From: Dehalococcoidia bacterium | GTDB taxonomy: Bacteria; Chloroflexota; Dehalococcoidia; SM23-28-2; RBG-16-64-32 | Direction: 5' to 3' | Assembly: GCA_034411955.1 (NCBI GenBank) | Contig: DAOUMF010000149.1 | Coordinates: forward strand, 1 to 39,839 | DNA length: 39,839 bases | In this document: positions 609 through 26,208 of the stretch, piece after piece | Layout of the letters: each line of letters opens with the position of its first letter | Position numbering within the stretch: the stretch's first letter is position 1 | The notes under the pieces: generated by a model | Told to the model about the DNA's origin: nothing | Database searches by the model: none | The model's input: only the letters and a program-made list of their open reading frames with translations | Made by a program: the position numbers and the translations under genes

Positions 609-1478
609 CTAGACGAAGTTGTTCTGGGTCAGGAACTCAAGCAGCCGCTCGGCCACGCTATCTGGCGGCCCCTGGATGACGTCACCGTGCCGCTCCTCCA
701 CGCCGCCGGAGATGACCTGTTGCCAGCGATCCTCCGGCGACAGGCTGCTGTCGGGAATGAACAACCCTCTGGTGATAGGCTTGGGCGGCGACAGGTTCAC
801 TACCTGAGCGCAGGAGCCCGCCTCGCCTGTCTCCTCAGGACGGAGACCCAGGTCGGCGAGGCCGTGCCGGGGGACTTCCGCCCCCAGCGACGCGAGAACA
901 GCCCGTAGCCGCGGATAGCGGGGGCGATTGATCCGCTCCTCGACGGCGAACAGGGCCGGCAAGGGACAGCGGAGCACCTCTCGCCGCCCTCGTTCCAGTC
1001 GGCGATGAACCAGGGCCTCGCTGTCCCTCATCTCCAGCCGCACAACGCCGGTGACCGCCGGTAGGCCGAGAAGCTCGGCCAGTTGAGCGCCCACCTGCCC
1101 CGTATCGCCGTCGCTGGCCCGCTTCCCGCAAAGCACAACATCGGCCCCCACCCGGCGGATGGCGGCGGCCAGAATGCGAGCGGTGGCCAGACTGTCGGAA
1201 CCGCGGAAGGCTTCATCCCACAGGAGCAGAGCCTCGTCCGCTCCGTGGGCCAGGCAGCGGCGGAGAACCGACTCGCTTTCGGGCGGGCCCATGCTGATGG
1301 CCGTCACGCTGCTATCGGCGAAACGATCCTTCAGGCGCAGGCCCTCCTCCAGGGCATGCTGGTCGGCTGGATTGAGGACGCGCCTCACGCCCTCTTCCTC
1401 GAGGTCGGCCTTTCCCAACCTCACCGGCAGCGGCTCGCTCGTATCCACCACCCTGGCGACGCAAACAACGATCTTCAT
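609..1478 (-). CDS. etfB: Electron transfer flavoprotein beta subunit (EtfB/FixA family)
   Basis: MKIVVCVARVVD... N-terminus and overall ETF-beta-like sequence. ATG at 1478 is preceded by GAGGTGAG about 7 nt upstream and lies 13 nt after the etfA stop (1492-1494). Confidence 0.85.
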   Translation of the reverse strand: MKIVVCVARVVDTSEPLPVRLGKADLEEEGVRRVLNPADQHALEEGLRLKDRFADSSVTAISMGPPESESVLRRCLAHGADEALLLWDEAFRGSDSLATARILAAAIRRVGADVVLCGKRASDGDTGQVGAQLAELLGLPAVTGVVRLEMRDSEALVHRRLERGRREVLRCPLPALFAVEERINRPRYPRLRAVLASLGAEVPRHGLADLGLRPEETGEAGSCAQVVNLSPPKPITRGLFIPDSSLSPEDRWQQVISGGVEERHGDVIQGPPDSVAERLLEFLTQNNFV

Positions 1479-1491
1479 CGAGCTTCTCACC

Positions 1492-2565
1492 TCACGAGAC
1501 CTGCCCGGTGACAGGCACGTTGGCCAGCGTTCGCAGGACCTCCTGGTCCTCGGCCGTCCCCCGCTCCTGCCGCAAACGCCGCAGCCGCTCGATCAGCGCG
1601 GGCAGCACGTGGCGCAGGTCGCCCACTATCTTCACGTCGGCGATCTGGAAGATGGGGGCATGGGCATCCAGGTCTATGGCCACTACGGCCCTGGAATCCC
1701 TCATCCCCACGACATGATGATTGGCGCCGGAAATGCCACAAGCGATGTACAGCCTGGGGGCGACGGTCTTGCCGCTGAGCCCCACCTGTCGCTCGTAGGA
1801 AGCCCAGCCGGCGTCCACCACCGGCCTGGAGGCCGCCACGGCGGCGCCCACGAGGTGAGCCAGTTGCTCGATCAGGTGGAACCCCTCCTCGCTGCCAGCG
1901 CCCCGCCCACCAGCGACGATGATATCCGCCTCCGTCACGTCCAGGGCCGAGGGAGGAATCTTGATCACCTCCTCCAGGCGGAGACGCAGGCTTTTGGGGG
2001 ATATGGTCACGTCCACTGCGATCAACTGCGCCTCGCGGCCGGGGTCCGGCTGCTTGGTCGGCGCCGCCCCCGGCTGGATGACGGCCATCTGGGGCCTCGC
2101 CTCAGGGCAGACCACATCACAGGAGGCCTTGCCGCCGTAGGCCGGGCGAGTCATCACCAGCAGCCCATCCTCGTTCAGGTCGACGCGGCTGCAATTGGAG
2201 GCGAGGCCTGTGCCCAGGCGGGCGGCCACCCGCGGAGCCAGGTCGCACCCCTGATCGGTACCGCCCCAGAGCACGATAGAAGGTCGCCCGCGACCGATGA
2301 GATCAGCGAGAACGGGAGCGTAGGCGTCGGGATTGTAGGCCCCCAGGAGCGGGCTTTCGGCCATATACACCGTATCGGCGCCGTACTGGCCGACGAGAGG
2401 CCCTAGGCCACGAACATCATCGCCCAGGAGCACCGCCATCGCGGACAGGCCCAGCCGATCGGCCAGCTCGCGGGCCTGCCCCAGGAGCTCCAGGGCGACA
2501 TCATCTACGTCGTGGGCGCTATGGTCGACGACAACCCATACGCCGCCCGTCTGTCCTGCTCGCAT
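1492..2565 (-). CDS. etfA: Electron transfer flavoprotein alpha subunit (EtfA/FixB family)
   Basis: 357-aa ORF with the C-terminal FAD-binding signature ...PRLYIACGISGANHHVVGMRDSRAVVAIDLDAHAPIFQIAD... It lies directly upstream of etfB on the same strand. Confidence 0.85.
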   Translation of the reverse strand: MRAGQTGGVWVVVDHSAHDVDDVALELLGQARELADRLGLSAMAVLLGDDVRGLGPLVGQYGADTVYMAESPLLGAYNPDAYAPVLADLIGRGRPSIVLWGGTDQGCDLAPRVAARLGTGLASNCSRVDLNEDGLLVMTRPAYGGKASCDVVCPEARPQMAVIQPGAAPTKQPDPGREAQLIAVDVTISPKSLRLRLEEVIKIPPSALDVTEADIIVAGGRGAGSEEGFHLIEQLAHLVGAAVAASRPVVDAGWASYERQVGLSGKTVAPRLYIACGISGANHHVVGMRDSRAVVAIDLDAHAPIFQIADVKIVGDLRHVLPALIERLRRLRQERGTAEDQEVLRTLANVPVTGQVS

Positions 2566-2631: not shown

Positions 2632-3342
2632 CTACCTTCCGCCGAGGCTCCAGAAGGGACCCGTCTTCCCCAGCTTCGCCAACGTCATCATCAACTCGGG
2701 CATAAACTGGGGCAGCCGCAGCAGGTAGTCGGGCTGGAGACGCTCGCGGAACAGGTCGGCGCTGAAAAGCGTGGCGTAGTCGGCGAGGGGCATGATGCCG
2801 TCGGCGCTCTCGGGGTCATACAGAGACCAGTTCTGGACGTGCTCTTCCGACCGGAAGAGGTTCATGAGGCTTCAAGCTCTCGCGATGTCTTCACGCCAGC
2901 GTGAGAAGGGAACATTGACGTGGCCGACGATGCCGGGTGGCGAGGCCTCCAGTATCTCACCATCGCGGATCCGCACCCGTATCGGTTCGTTGCAGTCCAG
3001 GCACGGGCAGTCGATCTGAACATGCTTGCCGGGGAAGAGCCAGCTGACTGCCAGCGATTCGAATCCTCACTGACCGTACCATTTCTGTTCGCCCTCCACC
3101 GAGATCAGGTAGTGAGTGGGGATGTTGGAGAACGGCGCGGGGGATGCAACGACGTCGGTGCCTGGGCTGAGCCAGAAGCCCGGGACCCTGCCATCACCGA
3201 GTTCGTGGAGCGCTTCCCGGGCGTCATCTAGGGAGATGCCTAGCTCGGTAGCGAGCTCTGTATAGTGCGGCGCTCGGCCGTCGCGCACGATGCCGCTCAT
3301 GGTGGCATGGTACATCCTTGCCAGGACCTGCGGGTCAGCCAT
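2632..3342 (-). CDS. MerB-like (alkylmercury lyase family) protein with N-terminal HTH; a single frame with two in-frame TGA codons (3069-3067 and 2874-2872), candidate selenocysteines
   Basis: ORFs 3067..3657(-), the unlisted stretch 2875..3066(-) and 2632..2865(-) are all in one frame, separated only by TGA. ATG at 3342 has AAGGAGG 7 nt upstream. By my recalled alignment to MerB, YAWC96ALD99TL aligns with WYGQ[TGA]GFESL, and SFC159CHVHFFAS..AEDW aligns with IARA[TGA]SLMNLFRSEEHVQNW. The TGA-TGA spacing is 65 codons against 63 residues between C96 and C159. Confidence 0.6.
2842..2859 (-). promoter_or_regulatory. Candidate SECIS-like hairpin downstream of the second in-frame TGA
   Basis: On the minus strand: CUCUUCC-GGUC-GGAAGAG, a perfect 7-bp stem with a GGUC tetraloop, starting 12 nt after the TGA. 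As I recall it, the E. coli fdhF SECIS apical loop is also GGUC, with the minimal stem-loop 11 nt from the UGA. Confidence 0.45.
3043..3055 (-). promoter_or_regulatory. Candidate SECIS-like hairpin downstream of the first in-frame TGA
   Basis: On the minus strand: GCUG-GCAGU-CAGC, starting 11 nt after the TGA. The loop carries G-U at positions 22-23 counted from the U of UGA (fdhF has G23 U24). The stem is only 4 bp, with an imperfect lower extension. Confidence 0.3.
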
Positions 3343-3523
3343 GGCGCACCTCCTTTGCCTGTGATGACATACCGACTGCGCCATTCTACCAGAGGCCGAG
3401 CCGATTGACACCTCGATCCGTCGTGCGCAATGATTGGCGCGCCAAGACCGCCCGGAGAGTCGGGCGAGGGCGTTTGGGCCCGCCATGTGGGTTCGGCGGA
3501 GATCGAGAATGGAGGGTGGCAAC

Positions 3524-4872: not shown

Positions 4873-6834
4873 ATGACCACCCGACTAGAAAGAACCGAGG
4901 CGGAGTTCAAGCACCTGTTCACTCCTTTGAAGATCGGCGCATTCACCGTCCGCAACCGCATCGTCAGCACCGCCCACCTCACCGGTTTCGCCGAGGGCGG
5001 CCTTCCAACCGAACGGCACCTGAACTACTGGGCGTCAAAGGCTAAAGGGGGCATCGGCCTCATCGTCACCGAGGATCAGGCCGTCCACCCCACTGCTGCC
5101 ACCGATCCATTCGTTATCCACGCCTACAGGGACGCATGCATCGAGCCCTTCAGGCGCATCGTCTCCGCCGTGCATGAGCACGGCGCCAAGCTAGTCGCCC
5201 CGCTATGGCACCCCGGCAGCGTTTTATACGGGGCGCGAGAGGGTAGCCTGCCCCTGTGGTCCAGCGGGGCCAACCCCGGCTCCTTCCACAGCGAGACCGC
5301 CCACGCCATGGAGCCCGAAGAGGTGAAGGAGGTGGTTCAGGCCTTTGGCGACTCCGCGCGGCGAATGCGAGAGGCCGGCCTGGACGGCGTAGAGCTCATG
5401 GGCACTCATGGCTTCCTGATCGAGCAGTTCATGTCCCCTCGCACCAACGAGCGCAGCGATGAATACGGGGAGACCGAGGAGAACCGCCTTCGCTTCATCC
5501 TGGAGGTGATCGACGCGGTGCGGGCTGATGTGGGTTCCGACTTCACCGTGGGCCTGCGGATTAGCGGTGACCAGTTCCAGGGAGGCGGCCTGGGCCTCCA
5601 GGACATGCTGAAGATCATGCCCAAGGTAACGGCTTCCGGCAAGCTGGACTACGTCAGCGTTACCGTCGGCGGCGGCGGCGCCCCCATCCCGCCCATGTAC
5701 ATGCCCGGCAGCCCCTTCGTCTACCTCGCTGCCGGGATCAAGGGCGTGGTGGACGTGCCCGTGTTCTGCGTCGGCCGCATCACCGACCCCGTAGTGGCCG
5801 AGGACATCCTGGCCAAGAACCAGGCGGACATGGTGGGCATGACCCGGGCCAACCTCTGCGACCCCGAGCTTCCCAACAAGGCGCGGGAAGGAAGGTTGGA
5901 TGAGATCCGCCGCTGTATCGGCTGCAACGAGGGCTGCTGGGGCCGTATCTACCACACCCTGCCCATCACCTGCGCCATTAATCCCAGCGCGGGGCGGGAA
6001 AAGGAGATGGAGATCACCCCCGCTCCCGTGAAGAAGAGGGTGATGGTTATCGGCGCGGGCATCGCCGGCATGGAAGCGGCGCGAGTGGCGGCGCTGCGGG
6101 GCCACTCCGTGTCTCTGTACGATAAGGACGACCAGTTGGGGGGCCAGCTCCAGATCGCGGCCAAGGCTCCCGGCCGGCAGGACATGGCCGAGCCCGTCCG
6201 CTACTACGAATATCAGTTCAAGCTATTGGGAGTCGATCTCCACCTGGGCTCGGCAGTGGACGAAAGGACCGTGGCGGAGGCTAACCCCGATGTCGTCATC
6301 GTGGCCACGGGAGGGCTCCCCGCCCCGGCCACGGTTCCTGGGGCGACCCAGCCCAACGTTGTGCAGGCCCGAGACGTGCTGGCGGGCAAGGCCGAGGCCG
6401 GCAAGAGAGTCGTCCTGTGGGCCCTGGACCGCGGAATGGAGGCCCTTACGACTGCCGATTTCCTGTCCGATCGCGGCTCTGAGGTGGAGGTTCTCGTGCC
6501 TTGGGGGGCGATAGCGGGCTTCCAGGTAGAGCCCCTGACCCTCGCCTTTGTGCTATCGCGGCTCTATACCAAGGGGGTTGCCCTGACCAACAGCATGCAG
6601 ATAAAGGTCATTCAGGAGAACACAGTGATAGCCGCCAACGTCCTCACCCGCCAGGAGCGCACCATCGAAGAAGTGGACACCGTTGTCGTCGCCCTGGGGA
6701 GTGTGGCCAATGATAGCCTGTACAGGGCCCTCAAGGGCAAAGTGCCAGAACTCCACGTTATTGGACAGGCCCTTGCCCCACGCAAGATGCTGGAGTCCAC
6801 CCTGGACGGACTTCGCGTCGGCAGGATGGTGTAG
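4873..6834 (+). CDS. NADH:flavin oxidoreductase / 2,4-dienoyl-CoA reductase-like protein (OYE barrel + Fe-S motif + FAD/NAD(P) domain)
   Basis: 653 aa. N-terminal OYE-like region (FTVRNRIVSTAH), a CIGCNEGCWGRI cysteine motif, then the Rossmann motif VMVIGAGIAGMEAA. AAGGAG RBS precedes ATG 4873. Confidence 0.85.
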   Translation: MTTRLERTEAEFKHLFTPLKIGAFTVRNRIVSTAHLTGFAEGGLPTERHLNYWASKAKGGIGLIVTEDQAVHPTAATDPFVIHAYRDACIEPFRRIVSAVHEHGAKLVAPLWHPGSVLYGAREGSLPLWSSGANPGSFHSETAHAMEPEEVKEVVQAFGDSARRMREAGLDGVELMGTHGFLIEQFMSPRTNERSDEYGETEENRLRFILEVIDAVRADVGSDFTVGLRISGDQFQGGGLGLQDMLKIMPKVTASGKLDYVSVTVGGGGAPIPPMYMPGSPFVYLAAGIKGVVDVPVFCVGRITDPVVAEDILAKNQADMVGMTRANLCDPELPNKAREGRLDEIRRCIGCNEGCWGRIYHTLPITCAINPSAGREKEMEITPAPVKKRVMVIGAGIAGMEAARVAALRGHSVSLYDKDDQLGGQLQIAAKAPGRQDMAEPVRYYEYQFKLLGVDLHLGSAVDERTVAEANPDVVIVATGGLPAPATVPGATQPNVVQARDVLAGKAEAGKRVVLWALDRGMEALTTADFLSDRGSEVEVLVPWGAIAGFQVEPLTLAFVLSRLYTKGVALTNSMQIKVIQENTVIAANVLTRQERTIEEVDTVVVALGSVANDSLYRALKGKVPELHVIGQALAPRKMLESTLDGLRVGRMV

Positions 6835-6850
6835 GACTTGCGCCGGCCCC

Positions 6851-7354
6851 CTACGCGCCCACGATGTCGTTCACGTGCATCTGCACGTGCAGCACCGCGA
6901 CGGAGTAGAAAACGCTGACCAGCGGGCCCGTCACCCCTCCGGCAGAGCGGATGGGCGTGGCGAAAAGCTCCTCGGGGGCGCTCTCCACGGCCGCTATGGT
7001 GGTGGCGCGGTTCTGGCGGAACTCCGCCAGGAGCTCCTCGACCGACGCGTCGGCCCGCTTATCCACCTGCCGCTGGTTGTAGTCGCTGTAGCCGCCGCGA
7101 AAGGAGCGCGTGGGCGGCTCAGGCGATCGCTGCGCGCTGCCCCCCGCCTCCCGCGCGACGTCGATGAGTCGAGGGTAGGTCCACTCTATAGAAGCGATGT
7201 GGGCGAGGATCTGGCGACCGTTCCAGCCACCCTCGTAGCGCCCCCGCTCGAACTCTTCCGCCGGGAGCGCGCCCAGCTTGGCGACGACCTCCCCTTCGCT
7301 CGATCGCAGGGCGTCCAGTAGCTGCGCCTTCGATGGGGTCGTCTGTTGTGCCAC
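6851..7354 (-). CDS. DinB-family (four-helix-bundle, metal-binding) protein
   Basis: ..GWNGRQILAHIASIEW.. and the C-terminal His-rich ..LHVQMHVNDIV.. resemble the DinB/DinB_2 family. GTG at 7354 has AAGGAG 7 nt upstream, preferred over ATG 7399. Confidence 0.5.
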   Translation of the reverse strand: MAQQTTPSKAQLLDALRSSEGEVVAKLGALPAEEFERGRYEGGWNGRQILAHIASIEWTYPRLIDVAREAGGSAQRSPEPPTRSFRGGYSDYNQRQVDKRADASVEELLAEFRQNRATTIAAVESAPEELFATPIRSAGGVTGPLVSVFYSVAVLHVQMHVNDIVGA

Positions 7355-7597
7355 GGCGACGCTCCTTTCGGTTGGGCAGGCGCCTTCCCTCCGGCGCATC
7401 GAGTGTGAGGAGCAGGCATCCTGTGCCGCGATTATACACCGCGACTTGTTGACCCCGACTCGCGCGTCCCTGTACCCTCATCCGAGCCGTCAAACGGTAC
7501 AATATCGCTGGCCATGCGTTCCTTCCGTCTTGGACACAGCAAGCGTCTTCGCTCGACGTGCCATAAGGCCGTGTCGGTGCCGGTTGCGTAGTGTCAG

Positions 7598-8125
7598 ATG
7601 GTGATTGACTTCGGAGTCGCCCAGGGGATCGAGGCCCGTTCGGCCGGTACGCCGGGCCAGCGCACGTTTCACCTGTGCATACTCGGTGAAGCCGGGCAGT
7701 CGGCGTCGCTGAAGCTGGAGAAGCAGCACCTGGTGGGACTGCAAACCGGACTGCGCGCGCTTCTGGCCCAGATCCGCCATCAAGAGGCCCCCGAAGTTAG
7801 GGGAGCCGTGCGGCTGCCGCCGACGGTCGACTACGACTTCCCCGTGGGCCAGCTCGGCATTGGATTCTCGAGTGCAGATAGGACGATCGTCCTCGAAGCG
7901 CGAGAGCTTGAGGTGGAGGACAGTCGGGACGCTGTCACGATTCGCGCCCGGTTCACCCCATCGCAGGGCGCATCGCTCGCGGCCCAGTTGGAGGAGATCA
8001 TCGCCGCCGGAAGGCCGATCTGCCCCCTCTGCTGGGCCCCCATCGATCCTGAGGGGCACGTGTGCGTCAAGTCCAACGGCCACTCCCAGCAACCCATCCC
8101 GCGCGAACCCTCCGATCAGGAGTAG
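7598..8125 (+). CDS. DUF3090-family protein
   Basis: GTPGQRTFHL.., ..LEKQH.., and the C-terminal AAGRPICPLCWAPIDPEGHVCVKSNGH motif match my recollection of the DUF3090/TIGR03847 family. The RBS is weak. Confidence 0.55.
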   Translation: MVIDFGVAQGIEARSAGTPGQRTFHLCILGEAGQSASLKLEKQHLVGLQTGLRALLAQIRHQEAPEVRGAVRLPPTVDYDFPVGQLGIGFSSADRTIVLEARELEVEDSRDAVTIRARFTPSQGASLAAQLEEIIAAGRPICPLCWAPIDPEGHVCVKSNGHSQQPIPREPSDQE

Positions 8126-8214
8126 TGGCGCGGCGCATACGTTGAGTCACCGCGGCGTGTCGGTACTCTCGTCGATGCCAGGAAGCGTCGGACGATCCGT
8201 GGTATCCTCACACC

Positions 8215-9111
8215 GTGAATCTCGCTGAACGCCTCGGCTTCGCCGCCGCCGACCGCGTGCTCATCCTCCACGCCGACGATGTTGCCAGCTCCCACGCTGC
8301 CAACGCCGCCGCCTTCCAGTGCTTGGAGGAGGGCAGTCTCACTTCCGGCTCCGTCATCGTGCCCGCCGCCTGGTTCCCGGAGGCCGCCGCATTCGCCCGC
8401 GAGCACCCCCAGGCGGACCTCGGCGTCCACCTGACCCTGACCTGTGAGTACGATTCGTGTCGCTGGCGCGCGCTCACCGACCGCTCGGCCGGCCCCGGCC
8501 TCTACGACGAAGAGGGCTACCTGTGGCGCACCGTCGAGGAGGCGGTCGAGCACGTCTCTGTCGAGGAGGCCGAGAGAGAGCTGCGCGCCCAGGTCGAGAC
8601 GGCCCTCGCGGCCGGCATCGATCTGACACACCTGGACACGCACATGGGCACGGTCGTTCACCCCAAGTTCATCGAGACGTACGTATCGCTTGGTTTAGAG
8701 TACGCTATCCCCATCTTCGCCTTCCGCCCGAACCCGGAACGGTTGCGTCGCTCCGGCCTGCTCGAATTCTGGGACGCCCTTGAGCCGCAGCTCAAGCGGC
8801 TGGACGACGCGGCCTTCCCCATCCTCGATCACATCCTGGTCAGCACCTTGGAGCACCCGCCGGAGCGGAAAGAGGCGTACTTCAAGGGCCTCTTCGCCGA
8901 GCTCAGGCCGGGCCTGACCCACTTCCTCATCCACCCGGCCGTGCTCTCTGACGAGGTGAGCGCGATGACCGAGAGCGCGCCCCTGCGCGCCAGGGATTAC
9001 GAGCTGTTCCGCGACCGCTCGATGGCCGAGGAGCTGGCGCGGCTTGGCGTGAACACCATCGGCTACCGCCCCATCCGCGACGCCTACCGCTCGGCCGCAC
9101 TTAGGGGCTAA
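8215..9111 (+). CDS. ChbG/YdjC-family carbohydrate deacetylase
   Basis: N-terminal ..VLILHADDVASSHAAN.. and ..GVHLTLT.. are typical YdjC-like metal-site regions. GTG start. Confidence 0.7.
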   Translation: MNLAERLGFAAADRVLILHADDVASSHAANAAAFQCLEEGSLTSGSVIVPAAWFPEAAAFAREHPQADLGVHLTLTCEYDSCRWRALTDRSAGPGLYDEEGYLWRTVEEAVEHVSVEEAERELRAQVETALAAGIDLTHLDTHMGTVVHPKFIETYVSLGLEYAIPIFAFRPNPERLRRSGLLEFWDALEPQLKRLDDAAFPILDHILVSTLEHPPERKEAYFKGLFAELRPGLTHFLIHPAVLSDEVSAMTESAPLRARDYELFRDRSMAEELARLGVNTIGYRPIRDAYRSAALRG

Positions 9112-9149
9112 CGATGCGGGCATAGTTGTCCTCAAATCCCGCGTCAGGC

Positions 9150-9174
9150 CAGCGCAACGAAAGCTGTTGCGCTG
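9150..9174 (+). terminator. Perfect 9-bp hairpin (CAGCGCAAC-gaaagct-GTTGCGCTG) between chbG-like and asd; possibly a terminator without a clear U-tract
   Basis: The inverted repeat was read directly from the sequence. Downstream sequence is CGTCTGGTCTAT, only weakly T-rich. Confidence 0.3.
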
Positions 9175-9263
9175 CGTCTGGTCTATCGAAGACAATCAAG
9201 GCAACCCTTGGCGCGGGTTCTGATGAGCAGCGACATTACTTGTAGCTATCCGGGGAGGTCTAG

Positions 9264-10325
9264 ATGTCCCTGAGAGTTACCGTCGTCGGCGTAGGCATGG
9301 TCGGCGAGGAGATCGTTTCTATCCTGCGAGAACGCGGCTTCCCGATGGAATGGCCCCCGCGGATCTGCGCCACGAGGGCGCGCAGCGAGACGCTTGCCGG
9401 TGAAGGCTTTCAGGTTGAGGAAACCAGCGATCAGTCTTTCGACGATGCGGACGTTGTCTTCTTCGCGGGAAAGGAAGGAGCCAAGGGGGCAAGCGTCCAG
9501 TGGGGCAAAAAGGCGGTCGATGCTGGTGCCGTCTGCGTTGACAACGGGGGCGACTTCCGTCTCGACCCCGCGGTGCCGCTAATCGTCCCCGAAGTGAACC
9601 TCGACGCGGCGACGCCCGAGACGCGCTTCATCGCCAGCCCCAACTGCTCAACGATCCAGATGGTGTTGGTCCTTCATCCCCTCCACCAAGCCGCGAGAAT
9701 CCGCAGGGTCGTCGTATCCACCTATCAGAGCGTATCGGGATGGGGTGTGAAGGCGCAGCAGGAGCTACTGGATCAAACCCCGCATGCCCTCAACTCCCTG
9801 GATAGTGTTCCCTTCGATCCGAGGGTGCTGGCCCGGCCGATAGCGTTCAACCTCTTCCCGCACATCGACAAGTTCACTGAGGACGGCTACACCAAGGAAG
9901 AGATCAAGATGGTGCTGGAGACCCAGAAGATCATGGGGGATGACACCATCAGGATAAGTCCTACCACCGTGCGGGTGCCGGTCTTGGTGGGGCATGGCGA
10001 GAGCGTCAATATCGAGACGGAAAAACACCTGAGCCCTGATGAGGCCCGGCAGATCCTATCGGCGACGCCGGGGATCGTCGTCATCGATGACCCCAACGAC
10101 GGCAACCCCCGAAATGACCCGCACGAGCGCACCTACCCCGTGCCCCTCGACGTGCGAAAACCCGAGTATCGGGACATGGTGCTGGTGGGGCGAATCCGGC
10201 AAGACCAGACCATCGAAAACGGGCTCAACCTGTGGTGCGTGGCAGACAACCTGCGAAAGGGCGCTGCCCTCAACGTGATTCAGATTGCCGAGGGGCTCGT
10301 CGAGCGAGGGAGCCTGAATCCGTAG
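9264..10325 (+). CDS. asd: Aspartate-semialdehyde dehydrogenase
   Basis: 353 aa with the active-site region ..FIASPNCSTIQMVLVLHPL.. GGGGAGG RBS precedes ATG 9264. Confidence 0.9.
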   Translation: MSLRVTVVGVGMVGEEIVSILRERGFPMEWPPRICATRARSETLAGEGFQVEETSDQSFDDADVVFFAGKEGAKGASVQWGKKAVDAGAVCVDNGGDFRLDPAVPLIVPEVNLDAATPETRFIASPNCSTIQMVLVLHPLHQAARIRRVVVSTYQSVSGWGVKAQQELLDQTPHALNSLDSVPFDPRVLARPIAFNLFPHIDKFTEDGYTKEEIKMVLETQKIMGDDTIRISPTTVRVPVLVGHGESVNIETEKHLSPDEARQILSATPGIVVIDDPNDGNPRNDPHERTYPVPLDVRKPEYRDMVLVGRIRQDQTIENGLNLWCVADNLRKGAALNVIQIAEGLVERGSLNP

Positions 10326-10393
10326 GACCGTCCAACGGCGAGACGGGGCGCTCGCCTGCCTCCAGGCGGCGAACCGGAGGGACTGGGGCGCAG

Positions 10394-11128
10394 TTGAGCA
10401 CAGCGGCCGACGCCTGGAAGAGCGAAGAGCTGGTTCGCACCTTCCTCGACGGTATTCGGGGTGGTATTCCCCTTGCCGGAGAGCAGATCGACGTCATGAT
10501 CCGGCTCGTCGAGGCAAGCGGGTCGCCCGTCCAGAGCTTCGCCGACCTGGGCTGCGGCAACGGCGTCCTCTCGCTCGCGATTCTGGAGCGGTACCCCAGC
10601 GCCGCCGCAACCCTGGTCGACCTCTCTGACCCCATGATCGAAGCTGCTCGCGATCACCTGAAACGCTACGCCTCGAACTGCCGATTCGTGACAGCGGACC
10701 TCTCCCACGCTGAGTGGATGAGCATGGTGGCGGACCGAGCCCCTTTCGATCTCGTCCTCTCTGGCTATGCCATCCACCACCTGCCAGACCAGCGGAAGCG
10801 CGAGCTGTATGCGGAGGTATTTGGGCTCCTAAGACCGGGCGCGCTGTTCCTCAACACGGACCACGTGAAGTCCGTCACGCCCTGGATCGAGGGCATCTTC
10901 GATGACCTCCTGATCGACTCCGTGCACGGCCACCATTCGCGGCTTGGGTCAGGCAAGACCCGCGAGGAAGTGGCGAAGGAATACGTCCACAGGCCGGACA
11001 GAGCGGCCGACATGCTGGCTCCTGTCGAAGTTCAGTGTGAGTGGCTTCGTCGCTGTGGCTTCGAAGACGTCGACTGCTACTTCAAGATACTCGAGCTGGC
11101 CATGTTCGGGGGACGCCGACCCAGGTGA
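10394..11128 (+). CDS. Class I SAM-dependent methyltransferase
   Basis: Motif I FADLGCGNGVLS, then ..DLVLSGYAIHHL.. The start is uncertain: TTG 10394 is the first candidate after the asd stop, and the ORF track start 10232 overlaps asd. Confidence 0.65.
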   Translation: MSTAADAWKSEELVRTFLDGIRGGIPLAGEQIDVMIRLVEASGSPVQSFADLGCGNGVLSLAILERYPSAAATLVDLSDPMIEAARDHLKRYASNCRFVTADLSHAEWMSMVADRAPFDLVLSGYAIHHLPDQRKRELYAEVFGLLRPGALFLNTDHVKSVTPWIEGIFDDLLIDSVHGHHSRLGSGKTREEVAKEYVHRPDRAADMLAPVEVQCEWLRRCGFEDVDCYFKILELAMFGGRRPR

Positions 11129-15981: not shown

Positions 15982-16175
15982 GGGGTAGGCAATGGGCAGG
16001 AGGGAATGGACCGACGTTCTGTCATTCTGAGGAGCGAGGTCCGCCAGAGGCGGACGGAGCGACGAAGAATCTCGCTGTATGGGCGAGCGCCACGTCCGCT
16101 GGTACCGCGAGATTCCTCTCCGCTCGACCGCCCCGGTAGGACCTCCCGAAGTTGCCCGACACAGGAGATCAGGAG

Positions 16176-16517
16176 ATGGACAAGATAGACGAGATCGTCG
16201 AGGGGAGGAAGGTCGCGCACGACAGGCTAACGAAGGCTGGGTCGAAGGTGTACAAAGCCTTCCTCGCCATGGAGGAGGCCGCCTTCTCCGACGGGGCGCT
16301 GCCGAAGAAAGCCAAAGAACTGATCGCGGTTGGCATATCCGTGGTCATCAACTGCGAATCGTGCATGCAGTGGCACATCGAGCAGGCCGGCAAGGCCGAT
16401 GCCACGAAGGCCGAGATCCTGGAAGCGGTGGAGGTGGGAATCGAGATGGGAGGCGGCCCGGCAACAGTGTCCGCAAGATTCGCTCTAGAGGTGCTGGAGC
16501 GGGTGTTTCCTGAGTAG
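16176..16517 (+). CDS. Carboxymuconolactone decarboxylase (AhpD-like) family protein
   Basis: ..KELIAVGISVVINCESCMQWHIEQA.. carries the CxxC of the AhpD/CMD family. ATG 16176 has CAGGAG 8 nt upstream. Confidence 0.8.
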   Translation: MDKIDEIVEGRKVAHDRLTKAGSKVYKAFLAMEEAAFSDGALPKKAKELIAVGISVVINCESCMQWHIEQAGKADATKAEILEAVEVGIEMGGGPATVSARFALEVLERVFPE

Positions 16518-19197: not shown

Positions 19198-20085
19198 CTA
19201 GCGCACCTCCACGCCCGCCAGCTTCTCCAGCGCCTTAATCAGCGCCTGCGTCCCCTCCTCGCCCAGCCCCTCCGCCTCCAGCGCCGAGAAGAGCTGCTGC
19301 ACCAGGCTCGTCCCCGGCAGGGGCAGCCCCAGCTTCTCCGCCGCCTCCAGGGCTAGCCGTAGGTCCTTCCGCTGGTGCGCCACCTTGAACCCCGGCCGGA
19401 AGTCCCGCTGCACCATGCGCGGGGCCAGGTTCTGGAGCTGCCAAGACGTCCCCGCCCCCGCGCTCACCGCCTCGATCATCACCCGCGGGTCGATGCCGGA
19501 GCGGGCGGCCAGCACCAGCGCCTCGCACACGCCCAGGTTCGTCAGCACCACCGCCACCTGGTTGCACAGCTTCACCGTCTGTCCGGCGCCGCTGGGCCCG
19601 CAGTGCACGATCTTCCGGCCCATCGCCTCGAGCACCGCCCGGTAGCGCTCCAGCGTCTTCTTCTTGCCGCCCACCATGATGGAGAGCGTGCCGTCGATGG
19701 CTCCCTGCTGGCCCCCGCTCACCGGCGCGTCCAGCATCTCGACACCCGCCTCGGCCAGCCGCTCCGCAATCCGACGCGTCACCTGCGGCGACATCGTCGT
19801 CATGTCCACATGCACCAGCCCGGCGTGCGCCCCCTCGATGATCCCCGCCGGGCCCAGCGCCACCGCCTCCACGTCCGGCGAGTCGCCCACGATCGTGATC
19901 ACTACGTCGGAGCGCGCGGCGACGTCGGCGGGGCTGCTCCCCTCGGCCGCGCCCTCCCTCGCCAGCTCGTCGATGCCCGGCCGGCTACGGTTCCAGACGG
20001 TGAGGGGGAAGCCCGTCTTCATCAGGTTGCGGGCCATCGGCCGCCCCATTATCCCCAGCCCGATGAAGCCCACGCGGTCAGTCAC
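19198..20085 (-). CDS. NAD(P)-dependent 3-hydroxyisobutyrate / 2-hydroxy-3-oxopropionate reductase family dehydrogenase
   Basis: VGFIGLGIMGRPMARNL... Rossmann N-terminus and beta-hydroxyacid dehydrogenase-like body. GTG 20085 overlaps the upstream stop by 8 nt. Confidence 0.85.
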   Translation of the reverse strand: MTDRVGFIGLGIMGRPMARNLMKTGFPLTVWNRSRPGIDELAREGAAEGSSPADVAARSDVVITIVGDSPDVEAVALGPAGIIEGAHAGLVHVDMTTMSPQVTRRIAERLAEAGVEMLDAPVSGGQQGAIDGTLSIMVGGKKKTLERYRAVLEAMGRKIVHCGPSGAGQTVKLCNQVAVVLTNLGVCEALVLAARSGIDPRVMIEAVSAGAGTSWQLQNLAPRMVQRDFRPGFKVAHQRKDLRLALEAAEKLGLPLPGTSLVQQLFSALEAEGLGEEGTQALIKALEKLAGVEVR

Positions 20086-21088
20086 GGCGTTGCTCCAGCG
20101 GCACCTGTGGCTTCACGCTCGGGTTCGCCACGTACTTGGGCCAGCGCCCGCGCAGCACGTCCGCCGCCGCCCGGCCCACCTCCTGTCGGAGCTGTCGCAT
20201 CGCCTCCGGCGAGACCGACCCCACGTGTGGCGTCAGCACCACATTGTCCAGGCGGCACAGAGGGCTATCCGGCGGCAGCGGCTCCTCCTCGAACACGTCC
20301 AGCCCGGCCGCGGCGATCTCGCCGTTGGACAGCGCCTCCACCAGGGCCGGCTCGTCCACCACCGGCCCTCGCGCGGTGTTGATGAGCACCGCCGTCGGCT
20401 TCATCGCCTTCAGCTCGGCCGCCCCGATGAGGTGTCGCGTCTCCGGCGTGAGGGGCGTGTTCAGGGAGACGTAGTCGGCCTCCGCCAGCAGTTCGTCCAG
20501 CGGCACCAGCTTCACACTCATCTCCTCGGCCGCCTTGGGGTCGCAGTAGGGGGCGTGGGCCAGCACCCGCAGGCCGAAGGCCAGCGCCTTGCGGCCCACC
20601 GCCCGGCCGATGTTCCCGAACCCGATGATACCGAGCGTCTGCCCGTGCACGGGCGCCATACCCGAGGCGTGCGCGCTCCGCCAGCGCCCCGCGGCGATGT
20701 CCTGGTGCAGCGGCAGCAGCCTGCGGGCCATGGCCAGCAGCAGCGCGATGGCGTGGTTGGACACCTCCTCCGAGCAGAAGTCCAGCACGTGCGCCACCAC
20801 TATGCCCTGGTCCGTGGCCGCCTCCAGGTCCACGTTGTCCAGGCCGATCCCGTAGCGAACCACGCAGCGGCACTGGGGGAGGTTCTCCAGAACCCGACGC
20901 GTGATCTGGGCCCCGGCCACCAAGACTACGTCCGCGTCCCTGACGTTGGCGATAAGCTCGTCCTCGCTGCTGGCCCTGGTGGCCACCAGTTTGCAGTCCA
21001 AGTCGCCCAGGGCCCGGCGCTCCTCGCCCAACTGCGAGCCGGGCCGGGCGTCGGCGTGGACTATCAGCGGGCGCCTGTCAACGGTCAT
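20078..21088 (-). CDS. D-isomer-specific 2-hydroxyacid dehydrogenase family protein
   Basis: ..LGIIGFGNIGRAVGRKA.. NAD-binding motif, ..LINTARGPVVDE.., ..VVLTPHVGS.. Confidence 0.85.
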   Translation of the reverse strand: MTVDRRPLIVHADARPGSQLGEERRALGDLDCKLVATRASSEDELIANVRDADVVLVAGAQITRRVLENLPQCRCVVRYGIGLDNVDLEAATDQGIVVAHVLDFCSEEVSNHAIALLLAMARRLLPLHQDIAAGRWRSAHASGMAPVHGQTLGIIGFGNIGRAVGRKALAFGLRVLAHAPYCDPKAAEEMSVKLVPLDELLAEADYVSLNTPLTPETRHLIGAAELKAMKPTAVLINTARGPVVDEPALVEALSNGEIAAAGLDVFEEEPLPPDSPLCRLDNVVLTPHVGSVSPEAMRQLRQEVGRAAADVLRGRWPKYVANPSVKPQVPLEQRRD

Positions 21089-21107
21089 CGACGAGCGCCG
21101 TGGCTGC

Positions 21108-21938
21108 TTATTTCACGGTGGCGGCGGCGTTGCTAATCACCACGTCGCCGCGCTGCGTCTTGGCTTGGAGGACGATGCGACCCCCGCCCTCGTCCCACAT
21201 CTCCGTGATGACGTTGTCGCCCGGGAAGACGACGCCGGAAAACCGGACCTCCAGCCCCGTCATCCGAGCGGGGTCGTTGTCGCAGTACTCTCTGAGCACG
21301 GCGCGGCCGACGTGGCCGTATGTGCACAGCCCGTGCAGGATCGGCGTATCGTAGCCCGCCATCTTCGCGAACCCCGGGTCTATGTGCAGCGGGTTGCGGT
21401 CTCCGGACAGGCGGTAGATCATCGCCTGGATGGGCAGCGTCTGCATCTCCACGGTCTTGTCGGGTGCCCTTTCCGGCGCCTTGTTCCCGGCCTCCGGGCC
21501 GCGCTCCCCGCCGAAGCCGCCCGCCCCTCGCACGAACACCCCGGCCTCATTGGTGAACAGCACTTCGCCCTGCTCGTCCTTCGTTTCCGCCTCGACCACC
21601 AGCAGGGCGCCTTTGCCCTTGTCGTAGACGCCGGTCACCTTACCGGCCGTGGTCAGGTTCCCCTTCGGGGGAATCGGCTTGTGGAGCTTGATGCGCTGCT
21701 CGCCGTGGAGCAGCATCACGGGGTTTATCTCCACACTGGCGGCAAGCCCCATCATCGCTGGGAAACCCGGGATCACCGCGAACGTGGGGAGCACCTTCAG
21801 GTTGCGCTCGAAGACGAAGTCGAGCTCCGTGGCGCCCACGCCCACGGCGTACAGCATCACGTCGCGGTCGTCGTACTCGAAACTCGTCGGCGACAGCTCG
21901 ATACCTAAGGCTTCGGGAATAGCGACTCGTGTCGTCAT
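21108..21938 (-). CDS. MaoC-like (R)-specific enoyl-CoA hydratase, double hot-dog fold
   Basis: ..YRLSGDRNPLHIDPGFAKMAGYDTPILHG.. hydratase-2 motif. ATG 21938 has GGAGGAGGG upstream and lies 5 nt after the SDR stop. Confidence 0.85.
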   Translation of the reverse strand: MTTRVAIPEALGIELSPTSFEYDDRDVMLYAVGVGATELDFVFERNLKVLPTFAVIPGFPAMMGLAASVEINPVMLLHGEQRIKLHKPIPPKGNLTTAGKVTGVYDKGKGALLVVEAETKDEQGEVLFTNEAGVFVRGAGGFGGERGPEAGNKAPERAPDKTVEMQTLPIQAMIYRLSGDRNPLHIDPGFAKMAGYDTPILHGLCTYGHVGRAVLREYCDNDPARMTGLEVRFSGVVFPGDNVITEMWDEGGGRIVLQAKTQRGDVVISNAAATVK

Positions 21939-23065: not shown

Positions 23066-23143
23066 GGTGGGCGTCGCCTAGCGGTCTAAGGCGCCAGGTT
23101 GTGGCCCTGGAGATCGAGGGTTCGAATCCCTCCGTCCACCCCA
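23066..23143 (+). tRNA. tRNA-His (anticodon GUG) with encoded G-1 and CCA
   Basis: Manual cloverleaf. G-1:C73. Acceptor stem GTGGGCG/CGTCCAC with one G-U pair. Anticodon arm CCAGG-TTGTGGC-CCTGG. T-arm GAGGG-TTCGAAT-CCCTC. CCA at 23141-23143. Confidence 0.9.
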
Positions 23144-24684: not shown

Positions 24685-24761
24685 GCCCCCGTAGCTCAAT
24701 TGGATAGAGCGCCTGGCTTCGGACCAGTAGGTTGTGGGTTCGAGTCCTACCGGGGGCGCCA
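24685..24761 (+). tRNA. tRNA-Arg (anticodon UCG) with encoded CCA
   Basis: Manual cloverleaf. Acceptor GCCCCCG/CGGGGGC. D-arm GCTC-AATTGGATA-GAGC. Anticodon loop CT-TCG-GA. T-arm GTGGG-TTCGAGT-CCTAC. Discriminator G followed by CCA. Confidence 0.88.
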
Positions 24762-24868
24762 GCCTTATTCCTACCTCAGATTTGGCACCTCCGCTCAGCT
24801 AGCCATGCCCCGCTACGCGTATGGCATCGGTTTGAGCGCATGGTTTCGGTCACAAGAGGAGGTGTCCG

Positions 24869-25360
24869 ATGACAGGCGAAACCATCCACTCGACCGTTGA
24901 GGCGTGGCTGACCACCATCGGGGCTGAGGGCGTCAGAGGCTTGTCGGCTCTCGGTCTCTGACCTCAGCGAGGGAATGGCGGTGGTCAGGCAAACCAAGAC
25001 GGGCCGCATCCGCAGCGTGCCCCAGGGCCAGAAAGCGCAGAGGGCCAGCTACACTCACTTGGCAACGGGAAGGCCCAGGTGTGAGAACCTGCCGGTCAGT
25101 CGTGATGGCCTCCCCCTGCGCCGGAACACTGTTCGCCTGGCGCCCGACCGTCCGTCCCAGAAGCTGGGGTTTAGGTTGAGCGCCCACGGGTTCCGCCGCA
25201 GCTTCACTACGATGATGCTACGGCGGGGCTGCGACCTTGAGACGCTGAGACAGATGGGAGGGTGGTCTAGCTACGCGATGTTGATGACCTACGCCCACCT
25301 GGCGGCAGATGACCTGAAACGGCCGCACGCCACAAGGAGTCCGCTGGACAACCTATATTA
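24869..25360 (+). pseudogene. Tyrosine recombinase (phage-type integrase) remnant: short N-terminus, frameshift or internal deletion, then the catalytic domain
   Basis: ATG 24869 with a GAGGAGG RBS gives MTGETIHSTVEAWLTTIGAEG..., which stops at 24959-24961. A second frame, open from 24912, reads GLRASEACRLSVSDL..VVRQTKTGRIRSVP...HGFRRSFTTMMLRRGCDLETLRQMGGWSS..MTYAHL (box I Arg, HxxR, catalytic Tyr). The core-binding domain is missing. It lies 108 nt downstream of tRNA-Arg. Confidence 0.65.
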
Positions 25361-25446
25361 CGGATTGAGCCGTAACACGCTCGCGGGTCGCTCGTCTCCA
25401 TGTAATAGGAAGGCAGCTGACAGCCGATTAGGAGTTTTGCCAACCG

Positions 25447-26208
25447 GTGGGCTTCGTCAAAGGAGCGCAATCGGGCTCGTCCCGTTCCAGAGAACCGCGC
25501 CGCGTGCTCCTGGTAGAGGAGGATGGGGAGACCCTGCGCCTAGCGCGCCAGGCGCTTGAGGCGTTCAAAAGGGCCGAGTTCGTTATCGAGACGGTCACTT
25601 CCTCGCGGGAGCTACGAGATGCACTCGCAGCGCGTGCCTTCGAGGACGAGCTGACCGGCCTCTACAGCAAGCCATTCTTCGTTGAAGCGCTCCGGAACGA
25701 GACTCGCAGGCTCCTGCGGTATGAACGTGACCTCTCGTGTATGATGCTTGCCCTAGATGGCTTGGCGTTGGTCCGCGAGGCTCACGGCCAAGAAACTGCG
25801 GACACAGCACTGAAGCAGGTTGCCGCGTTCGTCCTGAATTCGATTCGCGAGGGGGACGTCGTTGCCCGCTGGGGGCCGGATGAGTTGGGTGTCTTGCTCG
25901 TCGAGACGCCGGCGAGCTTGGGGCGTCGAGTAGCCGAACGCCTCAGATTTGGCATCGCTGGCAGCGCCGTGATCGTAGAGGACCAGCCGCGGTCCATGAC
26001 CGTCAGCGTCGGCATCTGCGCAATCAATCGCCATCATCATCTCCAACCGGACGCGATCCTCGATCGTGCCGTCGCCGCTCTTCGAGAGGCAATGGCCACC
26101 GGCGGGAACCGCGTCTGTTTGGATGCGAATGCCGTAGAAAGCGATCAAGAAGGGCCGGAACGCCGGACGGTCGATCTCGGGCAGCAGTCCGATGTTCAGT
26201 CAGCCTGA
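25447..26208 (+). CDS. Degenerate GGDEF-domain protein with a truncated receiver-like N-terminus
   Basis: RVLLVEEDGETLRLARQALE.. looks like the beginning of a REC domain but runs directly into the GGDEF linker DELTGLYSKPFF. The active site reads GPDEL instead of GG[DE]EF. An RxxD (REGD) is present 5 residues upstream, the I-site position. The start codon is uncertain (GTG 25447). Confidence 0.65.
   Translation: MGFVKGAQSGSSRSREPRRVLLVEEDGETLRLARQALEAFKRAEFVIETVTSSRELRDALAARAFEDELTGLYSKPFFVEALRNETRRLLRYERDLSCMMLALDGLALVREAHGQETADTALKQVAAFVLNSIREGDVVARWGPDELGVLLVETPASLGRRVAERLRFGIAGSAVIVEDQPRSMTVSVGICAINRHHHLQPDAILDRAVAALREAMATGGNRVCLDANAVESDQEGPERRTVDLGQQSDVQSA

Follow-up and report, generated by a model that had tools for sequence, protein, structure and literature searches.

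Does a reading frame cut twice by TGA encode a dead protein, or one in which both TGAs are read as selenocysteine (Sec)? This question is raised by a merB-like gene on the minus strand of contig DAOUMF010000149.1 from a Dehalococcoidia bacterium (assembly GCA_034411955.1), a stretch of ~40 kb that we analyzed as a whole and call the window; gene positions are given in window coordinates. The frame occupies 2632-3342, from an ATG at 3342-3340 to a TAG at 2634-2632, and consists of 236 codons plus the TAG, with TGA at 3069-3067 (codon 92) and TGA at 2874-2872 (codon 157) as its sole interruptions. Gene callers break it into three open reading frames (ORFs). An earlier note had proposed a one-frame gene with two TGAs, a good ribosome-binding site and a start at 3342; our reading of the sequence bears this out, and the N terminus of the window protein lines up with residue 1 of its homologues. 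Judging from sequence comparison, we consider it very probable that this is a genuine gene for a MerB-like enzyme with two Sec codons, each equipped with its own Sec insertion sequence (SECIS) element. The features on which the argument turns are as follows.

2632..3342, minus strand: candidate merB-like selenoprotein gene, based on the frame, a Pfam MerB (PF03243) match of 73.1 bits, the ratio of nonsynonymous to synonymous substitution rates (dN/dS), and 164 orthologous loci
3349..3355, minus strand: Shine-Dalgarno sequence AAGGAGG, read from the sequence, 6 nt before the ATG at 3342
3067..3069, minus strand: UGA codon 92, predicted Sec, aligned with MerB Cys96
3058..3060, minus strand: Glu95 codon, at the position of the MerB proton donor Asp99 by HMMER alignment
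3039..3055, minus strand: SECIS-like hairpin 1, arms 3055-3050 and 3044-3039, loop 3049-3045
2992..3003, minus strand: Cys114-x-x-Cys117 motif (PCLDC), near-invariant columns in the homologue alignments
2872..2874, minus strand: UGA codon 157, predicted Sec, aligned with MerB Cys159
2842..2859, minus strand: SECIS-like hairpin 2, arms 2859-2853 and 2848-2842, loop 2852-2849

Relatives of the gene are numerous: 185,579 species-representative genomes yielded 443 matches, and metagenomes at least 554 contigs. From each of these two sets 80 loci were fetched, and the codon counts given here cover 164 related loci. The codon pair at the two columns is TGA/TGA in 127 loci and Cys (TGC or TGT)/TGA in 32, while 5 loci do not reach site 2; counted column by column, site 1 holds TGA in 130/164 loci and Cys (TGC or TGT) in 34/164, and site 2 is TGA without exception in the 159 loci that extend over it. 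Every one of the 289 internal stops in these loci is a TGA at one of the two columns, and no TAA, TAG, extra stop, or frameshift was found in any of the 164. Thus, where scattered stops or frameshifts in relatives had been named by the earlier note as the sign of a plain pseudogene, the relatives instead hold TGA at the same two codons, and its argument that two chance nonsense hits are improbable and Cys/Sec exchange likely is upheld by the 127 TGA/TGA loci. The loci come from at least five phyla (Chloroflexota, Desulfobacterota, Nitrospirota, Nitrospinota, and Acidobacteriota). Those of Dehalococcoidia and other Chloroflexota are 72-91% identical to the window protein, and those of Desulfobacterota/Syntrophales, Nitrospirota, Nitrospinota, Acidobacteriota, and the Olavius Delta-1 symbiont are about 50% identical, the lowest identity being ~45-50%. 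Carriers of TGA/TGA copies include complete genomes such as CP070630.1, OY969584.1, and OY969814.1.

The residue with which Sec would alternate is Cys. Natural C/C and C/U forms exist among the homologues, and a rough neighbor-joining tree of 151 distinct sequences requires at least seven independent Sec/Cys switches at site 1. Cys at site 2 is confined to the rare relatives P0026, P0079, and P0005, and distant full-length relatives (20-40% identity) have Cys at site 2 in 14/14 cases and at site 1 in 13/14. Selection on the protein continues past both TGAs: with 11 close orthologues as the reference, the N-terminal segment has a dN/dS of 0.06-0.30, the middle segment one of 0.04-0.10, and the C-terminal segment one of 0.08-0.47. 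Values of 0.04-0.47 in all three segments indicate that the stretches after each TGA are translated and constrained.

Several individual loci deserve mention in their own right. Two single-chromosome Chloroflexota metagenome-assembled genomes (MAGs), OY969584.1 (L007/L008) and OY969814.1 (L018/L019), each hold two distant TGA/TGA copies, and the two copies of OY969584.1 score identically. In P0005 (L166, 563-1273), which represents a cluster of 25 member sequences, site 1 is TCA (Ser) and site 2 is TGT (Cys). As each of these codons is one base away from TGA and both SECIS hairpins are almost intact, P0005 looks like a very recent loss of Sec, to judge from its sequence; Ser at the position of the first nucleophile is odd for an active enzyme. 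In L139, ARAGORN reports an 89-nt "tRNA-Lys" at 3345-3433 within the merB-like coding region, probably a false positive.

How such a family is recorded in protein databases is best seen from the 265 proteins returned by the homologue search, which fall into three forms: full-length proteins with W at both columns, proteins of ~155 amino acids (aa) with Cys at column 1 that end exactly at column 2, and a few full-length Cys/Cys proteins. The first two forms can be traced to the DNA. Locus L001 has W at both columns in the database and TGA at both in the DNA, W appearing at TGA columns because gene callers (JGI) pick genetic code 4 on short contigs; and in L002 the DNA of the 155-aa form runs on in frame past the TGA into the conserved MNLFRSEEH motif. 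NCBI records title the truncated 155-aa product "organomercurial lyase" or "hypothetical protein." Annotation artefacts of both kinds are seen in database proteins P0001-P0024, P0117, and P0090. An exhaustive profile search gave 1,100 representatives at an E value of ≤1e-3. Among the best 150 of these 1,100, ~43 break off at profile position 89-90, directly ahead of site 1 (about a third stop at the first UGA), many end at ~153-154, before site 2, and 9 begin at 159, after site 2. Since profile matches end at both sites, the family is stored in databases mostly as pieces, the fragments being ~90, 64, and 77 aa long. NCBIfam release 20 contains no model for a two-Sec MerB-like clade.

Next, we asked what the two TGA columns correspond to in MerB. 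For the hidden Markov model (HMM) searches, Cys was written at both TGAs. Residues 71-192 of the window protein match Pfam MerB (PF03243) with 73.1 bits against a gathering cutoff of 27, and PF03243 is present in every one of the database homologues. HMMER alignment to the MerB chains of the PDB places codon 92 on C96, Glu95 on D99, and codon 157 on C159, with 65 codons between the TGAs and 63 residues between C96 and C159 in MerB. This reproduces the alignment, the Asp99-to-Glu exchange, and the spacing that the earlier note had given: both TGAs fall on catalytic Cys columns, and Cys-containing homologues have Cys there. The canonical catalytic trio Cys96/Asp99/Cys159 is accordingly not matched as such, the residues being Sec(UGA)/Glu/Sec(UGA) with both Sec predicted, and Glu95 (GAA or GAG) is present in 164/164 loci. 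Cys114 of the window protein aligns with MerB Cys117, and the second Cys of its CxxC is without a MerB counterpart. This PCLDC motif, near-invariant in the family and absent in MerB, could be a resolving or hand-off dithiol. The fold was examined on P0026, a natural Cys/Cys relative 47% identical to the window protein, in place of the window protein itself. Its AlphaFold2 (AF2) model has a pLDDT of 93.8, and Foldseek lists nothing but MerB and MerB2 among its 11 best PDB matches (probability 1.00, TM score ≤0.69); these are its only significant PDB neighbours. The equivalog models NF033555 and NF009710 of canonical organomercurial lyase MerB (EC 4.99.1.2) give the window protein 23.6 and 32.2 bits, below their cutoffs of 200 and 193, and natural members score similarly.

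Reading a UGA as Sec would call for an RNA signal, and each of the two TGAs is followed by a hairpin. Hairpin 2 is as the earlier note described it, a 7-bp stem (CUCUUCC/GGAAGAG) with a GGUC loop that begins 12 nt past the UGA. For hairpin 1, its start 11 nt past the UGA stood, whereas the 4-bp stem and GCAGU loop first proposed gave way to a conserved form with a 6-bp stem (GCUGGC/GCUGGC, including two G·U pairs in the window) and the loop AGUCA, which across relatives follows the pattern N-G-U-N-N. No bulged U was seen in either stem. In hairpin 1, 99.8% of stem cells are paired over 79 distinct sequences, the one broken cell belonging to a Cys form, and the changes are one-sided with pairing kept (G·U to A-U, G-C to G·U). 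In hairpin 2, 98.3% of stem cells are paired over 75 distinct sequences, with a compensatory change of the closing pair from C-G to U-A in 11 distinct sequences. Among 129 distinct hairpin 2 segments, 114 form 7/7 bp and 15 form 6/7 bp, and 123 keep the GGUC loop. A lower CAUG/CAUG helix beneath hairpin 2, paired in only 73% of cells, was left out of the model.

Because coding constraint alone could mimic such conservation, two controls were run, one on synonymous codons and the other comparing UGA with Cys forms. When 79 distinct genes are aligned by codon, the synonymous choice proves to be fixed only within the hairpin codons: S96 as TCG (61/61) and S100 as AGC (55/56) at hairpin 1, and L162 as CTC (64/64), F163 as TTC (79/79), R164 as CGG (75/76), and S165 as TCG (77/77) at hairpin 2, which has a further frozen codon, GAA (76/79). 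The synonymous entropy deficit over the 12 codons after the UGA is 0.73 bits at site 1 and 1.15 bits at site 2, compared with 0.10-0.15 bits elsewhere. As for the second control, all 110 distinct TGA forms at site 1 have the full stem together with GU at loop positions 2-3, whereas the 28 distinct Cys forms keep the stem in 13 cases and the GU in 14, with relaxed codon usage; the stem is also broken in the natural Cys/Cys homologue P0026. As far as sequence comparison can show it, selection acts on both hairpins as RNA and is linked to a UGA being present.

A known bacterial counterpart is the SECIS of E. coli fdhF, a hairpin within the coding sequence about 11 nt after the UGA, whose GGUC apical loop provides the G and U that contact SelB. 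Hairpin 2 has the same GGUC loop one nucleotide further from the UGA, and hairpin 1 presents its GU one nucleotide closer. Compared with fdhF, the stems are short (6-7 bp), there is no visible bulged U, and one mRNA carries two elements.

Genes for Sec insertion were sought by tblastn, with E. coli K-12 SelA, SelB, and SelD as queries, in the window and in fetched loci totalling 1.58 Mb. In a Nitrospirota MAG (L063, QKDO01000041.1), selA (5683-7092), selB (7216-9099), an unannotated 155-aa ORF without a Pfam match (9245-9712), and a TGA/TGA merB-like gene follow one another on one strand in a row that spans 5683-10699; this SelA scores 524 bits on Pfam SelA, and the SelB carries SelB-specific winged-helix domains. 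Neither SelA nor SelB found a match in L064 and L071, two related Nitrospirota loci. Locus L162 holds a selD at 5983-6873, truncated by the locus end and ~5 kb from the TGA/TGA merB-like gene, with a TGA at the position of E. coli Cys17, i.e., a predicted Sec-containing SelD. A tRNA-Sec was sought in the window and 120 loci, and none was found there. BSepDB counts 46-49 selenoproteins in Dehalococcoidia MAGs and places these, along with Nitrospinota and the Olavius Delta-1 symbiont, among the selenoprotein-richest bacteria (PMC13326102). A crude screen of the window for further TGA-interrupted genes returned only antisense shadows of known genes.

Is the family a new one? Both MerB-like selenoproteins and prokaryotic proteins with two Sec are already known. 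The MerB-like selenoprotein SaoL (NF040728) carries only one Sec, which belongs to a Cys-Sec dipeptide at the place of MerB Cys159. It still has Cys99 and Asp102, marks a conserved nine-gene SAO locus found mainly in Firmicutes (its genes including SaoA, B, C, E, P, T, and X), and has been interpreted as an organometallic lyase whose substrate is possibly other than mercury (Haft & Gwadz 2022, bioRxiv 10.1101/2022.07.06.499078). Recent reviews list SaoL, with its one Sec, as the only MerB-like selenoprotein (PMC13188914, PMC9312934). The window protein resembles SaoL in its Pfam MerB domain, in Sec at the Cys159 position, in database truncation at UGA, and in its anaerobe hosts. However, it scores 38 bits against the SaoL cutoff of 140, with 45.3 bits for the best of 25 natural members. 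The CU dipeptide of SaoL is missing, the window having Ala-Sec-Ser and its orthologues A/T/S/R-U-S/A/T, never C-U. Further differences are Glu for Asp, a usual second Sec at the Cys96 position, and hosts mainly from Chloroflexota, Desulfobacterota, and Nitrospirota rather than Firmicutes. MerB (R831b; PDB 3F0P, 3F2F, 1S6L) and MerB2 (5C17) share the fold, and their active-site positions align. From MerB the family is set apart by an identity of ~18-20%, by Sec/Glu/Sec (Sec predicted) in place of Cys/Asp/Cys, by the extra CxxC, by a C-terminal extension of ~45 residues, by the lack of a mer operon among the window neighbours, and by scores of 24-32 bits on NCBIfam MerB models with cutoffs of 193-200. 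Being below both the SaoL and the canonical MerB cutoffs, the two-Sec family forms a third clade of PF03243.

Among prokaryotes, two Sec per protein are also known from archaeal FrhD/VhuD and an FmdB-family UxxU protein, among others (PMC13188914, PMC1976440). These share with the present family two UGA-encoded Sec per chain and the interchange of Cys and Sec between lineages; they are redox or Fe-S-associated, whereas here the Sec residues lie 65 residues apart and would meet at one metal site by MerB homology. Our literature search turned up no two-Sec or non-SaoL MerB-like selenoprotein, only SaoL, although someone may still have seen the family. The Olavius selenoproteome paper leaves the two-Sec family undescribed, though the Delta-1 symbiont has a TGA/TGA copy. 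A clade with both ligating cysteines as Sec thus appears to be undescribed.

From these observations a mechanism can be proposed. Each UGA would be recoded by its own hairpin within the coding sequence, 11-12 nt downstream and with GU in the apical loop, and, if E. coli fdhF is a guide, SelB loaded with Sec-tRNA(Sec) would be brought to the ribosome by the hairpin; we infer selenium incorporation at codons 92 and 157. In the protein, Sec92 and Sec157 would correspond to MerB Cys96 and Cys159, the metal ligands and nucleophiles, and by homology would converge on one site. The most economical mechanism would then be a MerB-type protonolysis of a carbon-metal(loid) bond at a bis-selenolate site, with Sec92 and Sec157 holding the metal and Glu95 protonating the leaving carbon, and by analogy to MerB we infer a carbon-metal(loid) lyase activity. 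As a substrate for the product of this stand-alone gene, an organomercurial, for instance methylmercury, would be the simplest guess. Yet the invariant Asp-to-Glu exchange, the extra CxxC, and the lack of both a mer operon and a conserved neighbourhood suggest a physiological substrate or hand-off chemistry unlike that of plasmid MerB.

How do other explanations compare with this one? That the window holds a plain pseudogene, a MerB-like gene killed by two nonsense mutations, might be concluded from the three ORFs given by gene callers and from the short database fragments. This is refuted by the comparative data, namely the same two TGAs in 127 loci across phyla without TAA, TAG, other stops, or frameshifts, dN/dS of 0.04-0.47 past both stops, and hairpins that co-vary with the presence of UGA, which together leave it with practically no probability. 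Similarly negligible is an alternative code with UGA as Trp or Gly (code 4 or 25), to which the W at both columns of many database proteins (JGI translations) would point, for these W residues are an artefact of code-4 calling (L001), the host lineages are standard-code bacteria, and in-frame TGAs occur nowhere but at the two Cys columns. In the window itself, with a GC content of 65%, TGA closes 16/41 long ORFs and is thus an ordinary stop, excluding a reassigned code. A subtler alternative is that UGA-157 alone encodes Sec, as in SaoL, and UGA-92 is a real or regulated terminator that releases a 91-residue winged-helix product, with occasional read-through. Site 1 is indeed labile (Cys in 34 loci, at least seven switches), hairpin 1 is the weaker one, with G·U pairs and no compensatory changes, and decoding two UGAs of the same mRNA efficiently makes high demands on a bacterium. 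Against this, the middle segment, which lies beyond UGA-92, is the most conserved (dN/dS 0.04-0.10), UGA-92 alternates specifically with Cys, and hairpin 1 and its GU loop are preserved by 110/110 UGA forms but deteriorate where Cys has taken the site, so we regard a single Sec as very unlikely.

A further alternative accepts both Sec residues and questions the chemistry: the protein might bind or traffic a metal(loid) or selenium, or carry out diselenide or selenenylsulfide redox reactions with the CxxC, rather than cleave a carbon-metal bond. Several observations would fit, including the want of a mer operon among the window neighbours and of any conserved neighbourhood, Glu for Asp99 in all members, the extra invariant C114-x-x-C117, the place of the Chloroflexota gene among redox flavoproteins (etfAB, acyl-CoA dehydrogenase, and an enzyme of the old yellow enzyme [OYE] type), and the very strong Hg-Se bond, which on general chemical grounds may disfavour turnover. 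In addition, structures have been solved for MerB2, which has Ser for Asp99, and, with mercury bound, for MerB D99S (PDB 5c17, 5c0t). However, the full MerB fold is retained together with two chalcogen ligands and a carboxylate three residues after the first, and SaoL, the nearest selenoprotein relative, is likewise read as an organometallic lyase. A non-lyase function is therefore a possibility to be taken seriously, though in our view a somewhat unlikely one.

The two-Sec lyase that we favour also has points against it, which concern both recoding and chemistry. No double-sided covariation is seen in hairpin 1 among the 79 distinct sequences, and the Fisher tests of UGA versus Cys forms (p = 8.6e-13 for the stem, 7.6e-12 for GU) are uncorrected for phylogeny. 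Taken alone, the window hairpins have fold-energy z scores of +0.24/-0.68 (40 nt) and -1.65/-2.82 (minimal), which are not significant; energy was therefore unused as evidence, and the SECIS case rests on comparison. An Rfam scan was without hits in the window gene, L063, and L162, although such a scan is uninformative for short bacterial SECIS elements. The 40-kb window contains none of selA, selB, selD, and tRNA-Sec. The mer operon genes merR, merT, merP, and merA are absent among the window neighbours, the flanks being unscanned with MerA HMMs, and clustering of flanking ORFs over ~160 loci revealed no conserved neighbourhood. Finally, Hg-Se bonds are very strong and may hinder product release from a bis-selenolate site.

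The surroundings of the gene in the window agree with the context given by the earlier note, which had found no mer operon and had placed the gene divergent from an acyl-CoA dehydrogenase and beside etfAB. Two further features belong here.

3383..3411, minus strand: sigma-70-like promoter match GTGTCA-17-TAGAAT, with TG before the -10 element, based on the consensus match alone
609..2565, minus strand: etfA (1492-2565) and etfB (609-1490), by Pfam ETF and ETF_alpha; context, outside the Sec system

The merB-like gene precedes etfA-etfB on the same strand and is divergent from the acyl-CoA dehydrogenase and an OYE-type flavoenzyme/reductase. No terminator-like site was found between it and etfA, and the genes are probably co-transcribed. 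The linkage to etfAB recurs only in ~10-12 close Chloroflexota loci and may be lineage specific and incidental. In the clustering of flanks, the top neighbour "clusters" were dismissed as large paralogous families or wrong-frame ORFs. An SAO neighbourhood was not among the window neighbours or clustered flanks, on which SAO HMMs were not run individually. In the JGI contigs L002-L004 (6100-13174), a Cys/Sec copy lies between a phage-type integrase and a DDE transposase, which hints that some merB-like copies are in mobile contexts. Elsewhere in the window, a truncated ORF of the phage integrase family (24975-25559), matching the C-terminal part of the Pfam profile only, follows a tRNA-Arg (24685-24761), and 24685-25559 may be the remnant of an integrated element. 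The window also holds a tRNA-His (23067-23143) and ORFs without a Pfam match at 16079-16513 (144 aa), 19664-21136 (490 aa), and 7490-8092 (200 aa).

What would the two-Sec family mean for the organisms that carry it? It would be a sizeable selenoprotein family missed by current annotation and a natural enzyme with predicted Sec in place of the two catalytic cysteines that ligate the metal. Its mRNA would carry two compact in-frame bacterial SECIS elements, one of them with an evolutionary on/off control, since hairpin 1 decays once the UGA becomes Cys. The natural Sec/Sec, Cys/Sec, and Cys/Cys versions offer a ready-made system for the role of Sec in carbon-metal cleavage and metal binding. 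It is tempting to speculate, although we find it quite doubtful, that the family constitutes a route for methylmercury demethylation or other carbon-metal(loid) cleavage in anaerobes without a mer operon. If so, the anaerobes concerned would include Dehalococcoidia, sulfate reducers, syntrophs, and Nitrospirota, with a site made of a bis-selenolate and a glutamate, and the route would have been overlooked because the gene is stored only as fragments or mistranslations. The family gives a concrete candidate, open to test, for the transformation of organometals or methylmercury in anoxic settings, where the responsible genes are poorly known.

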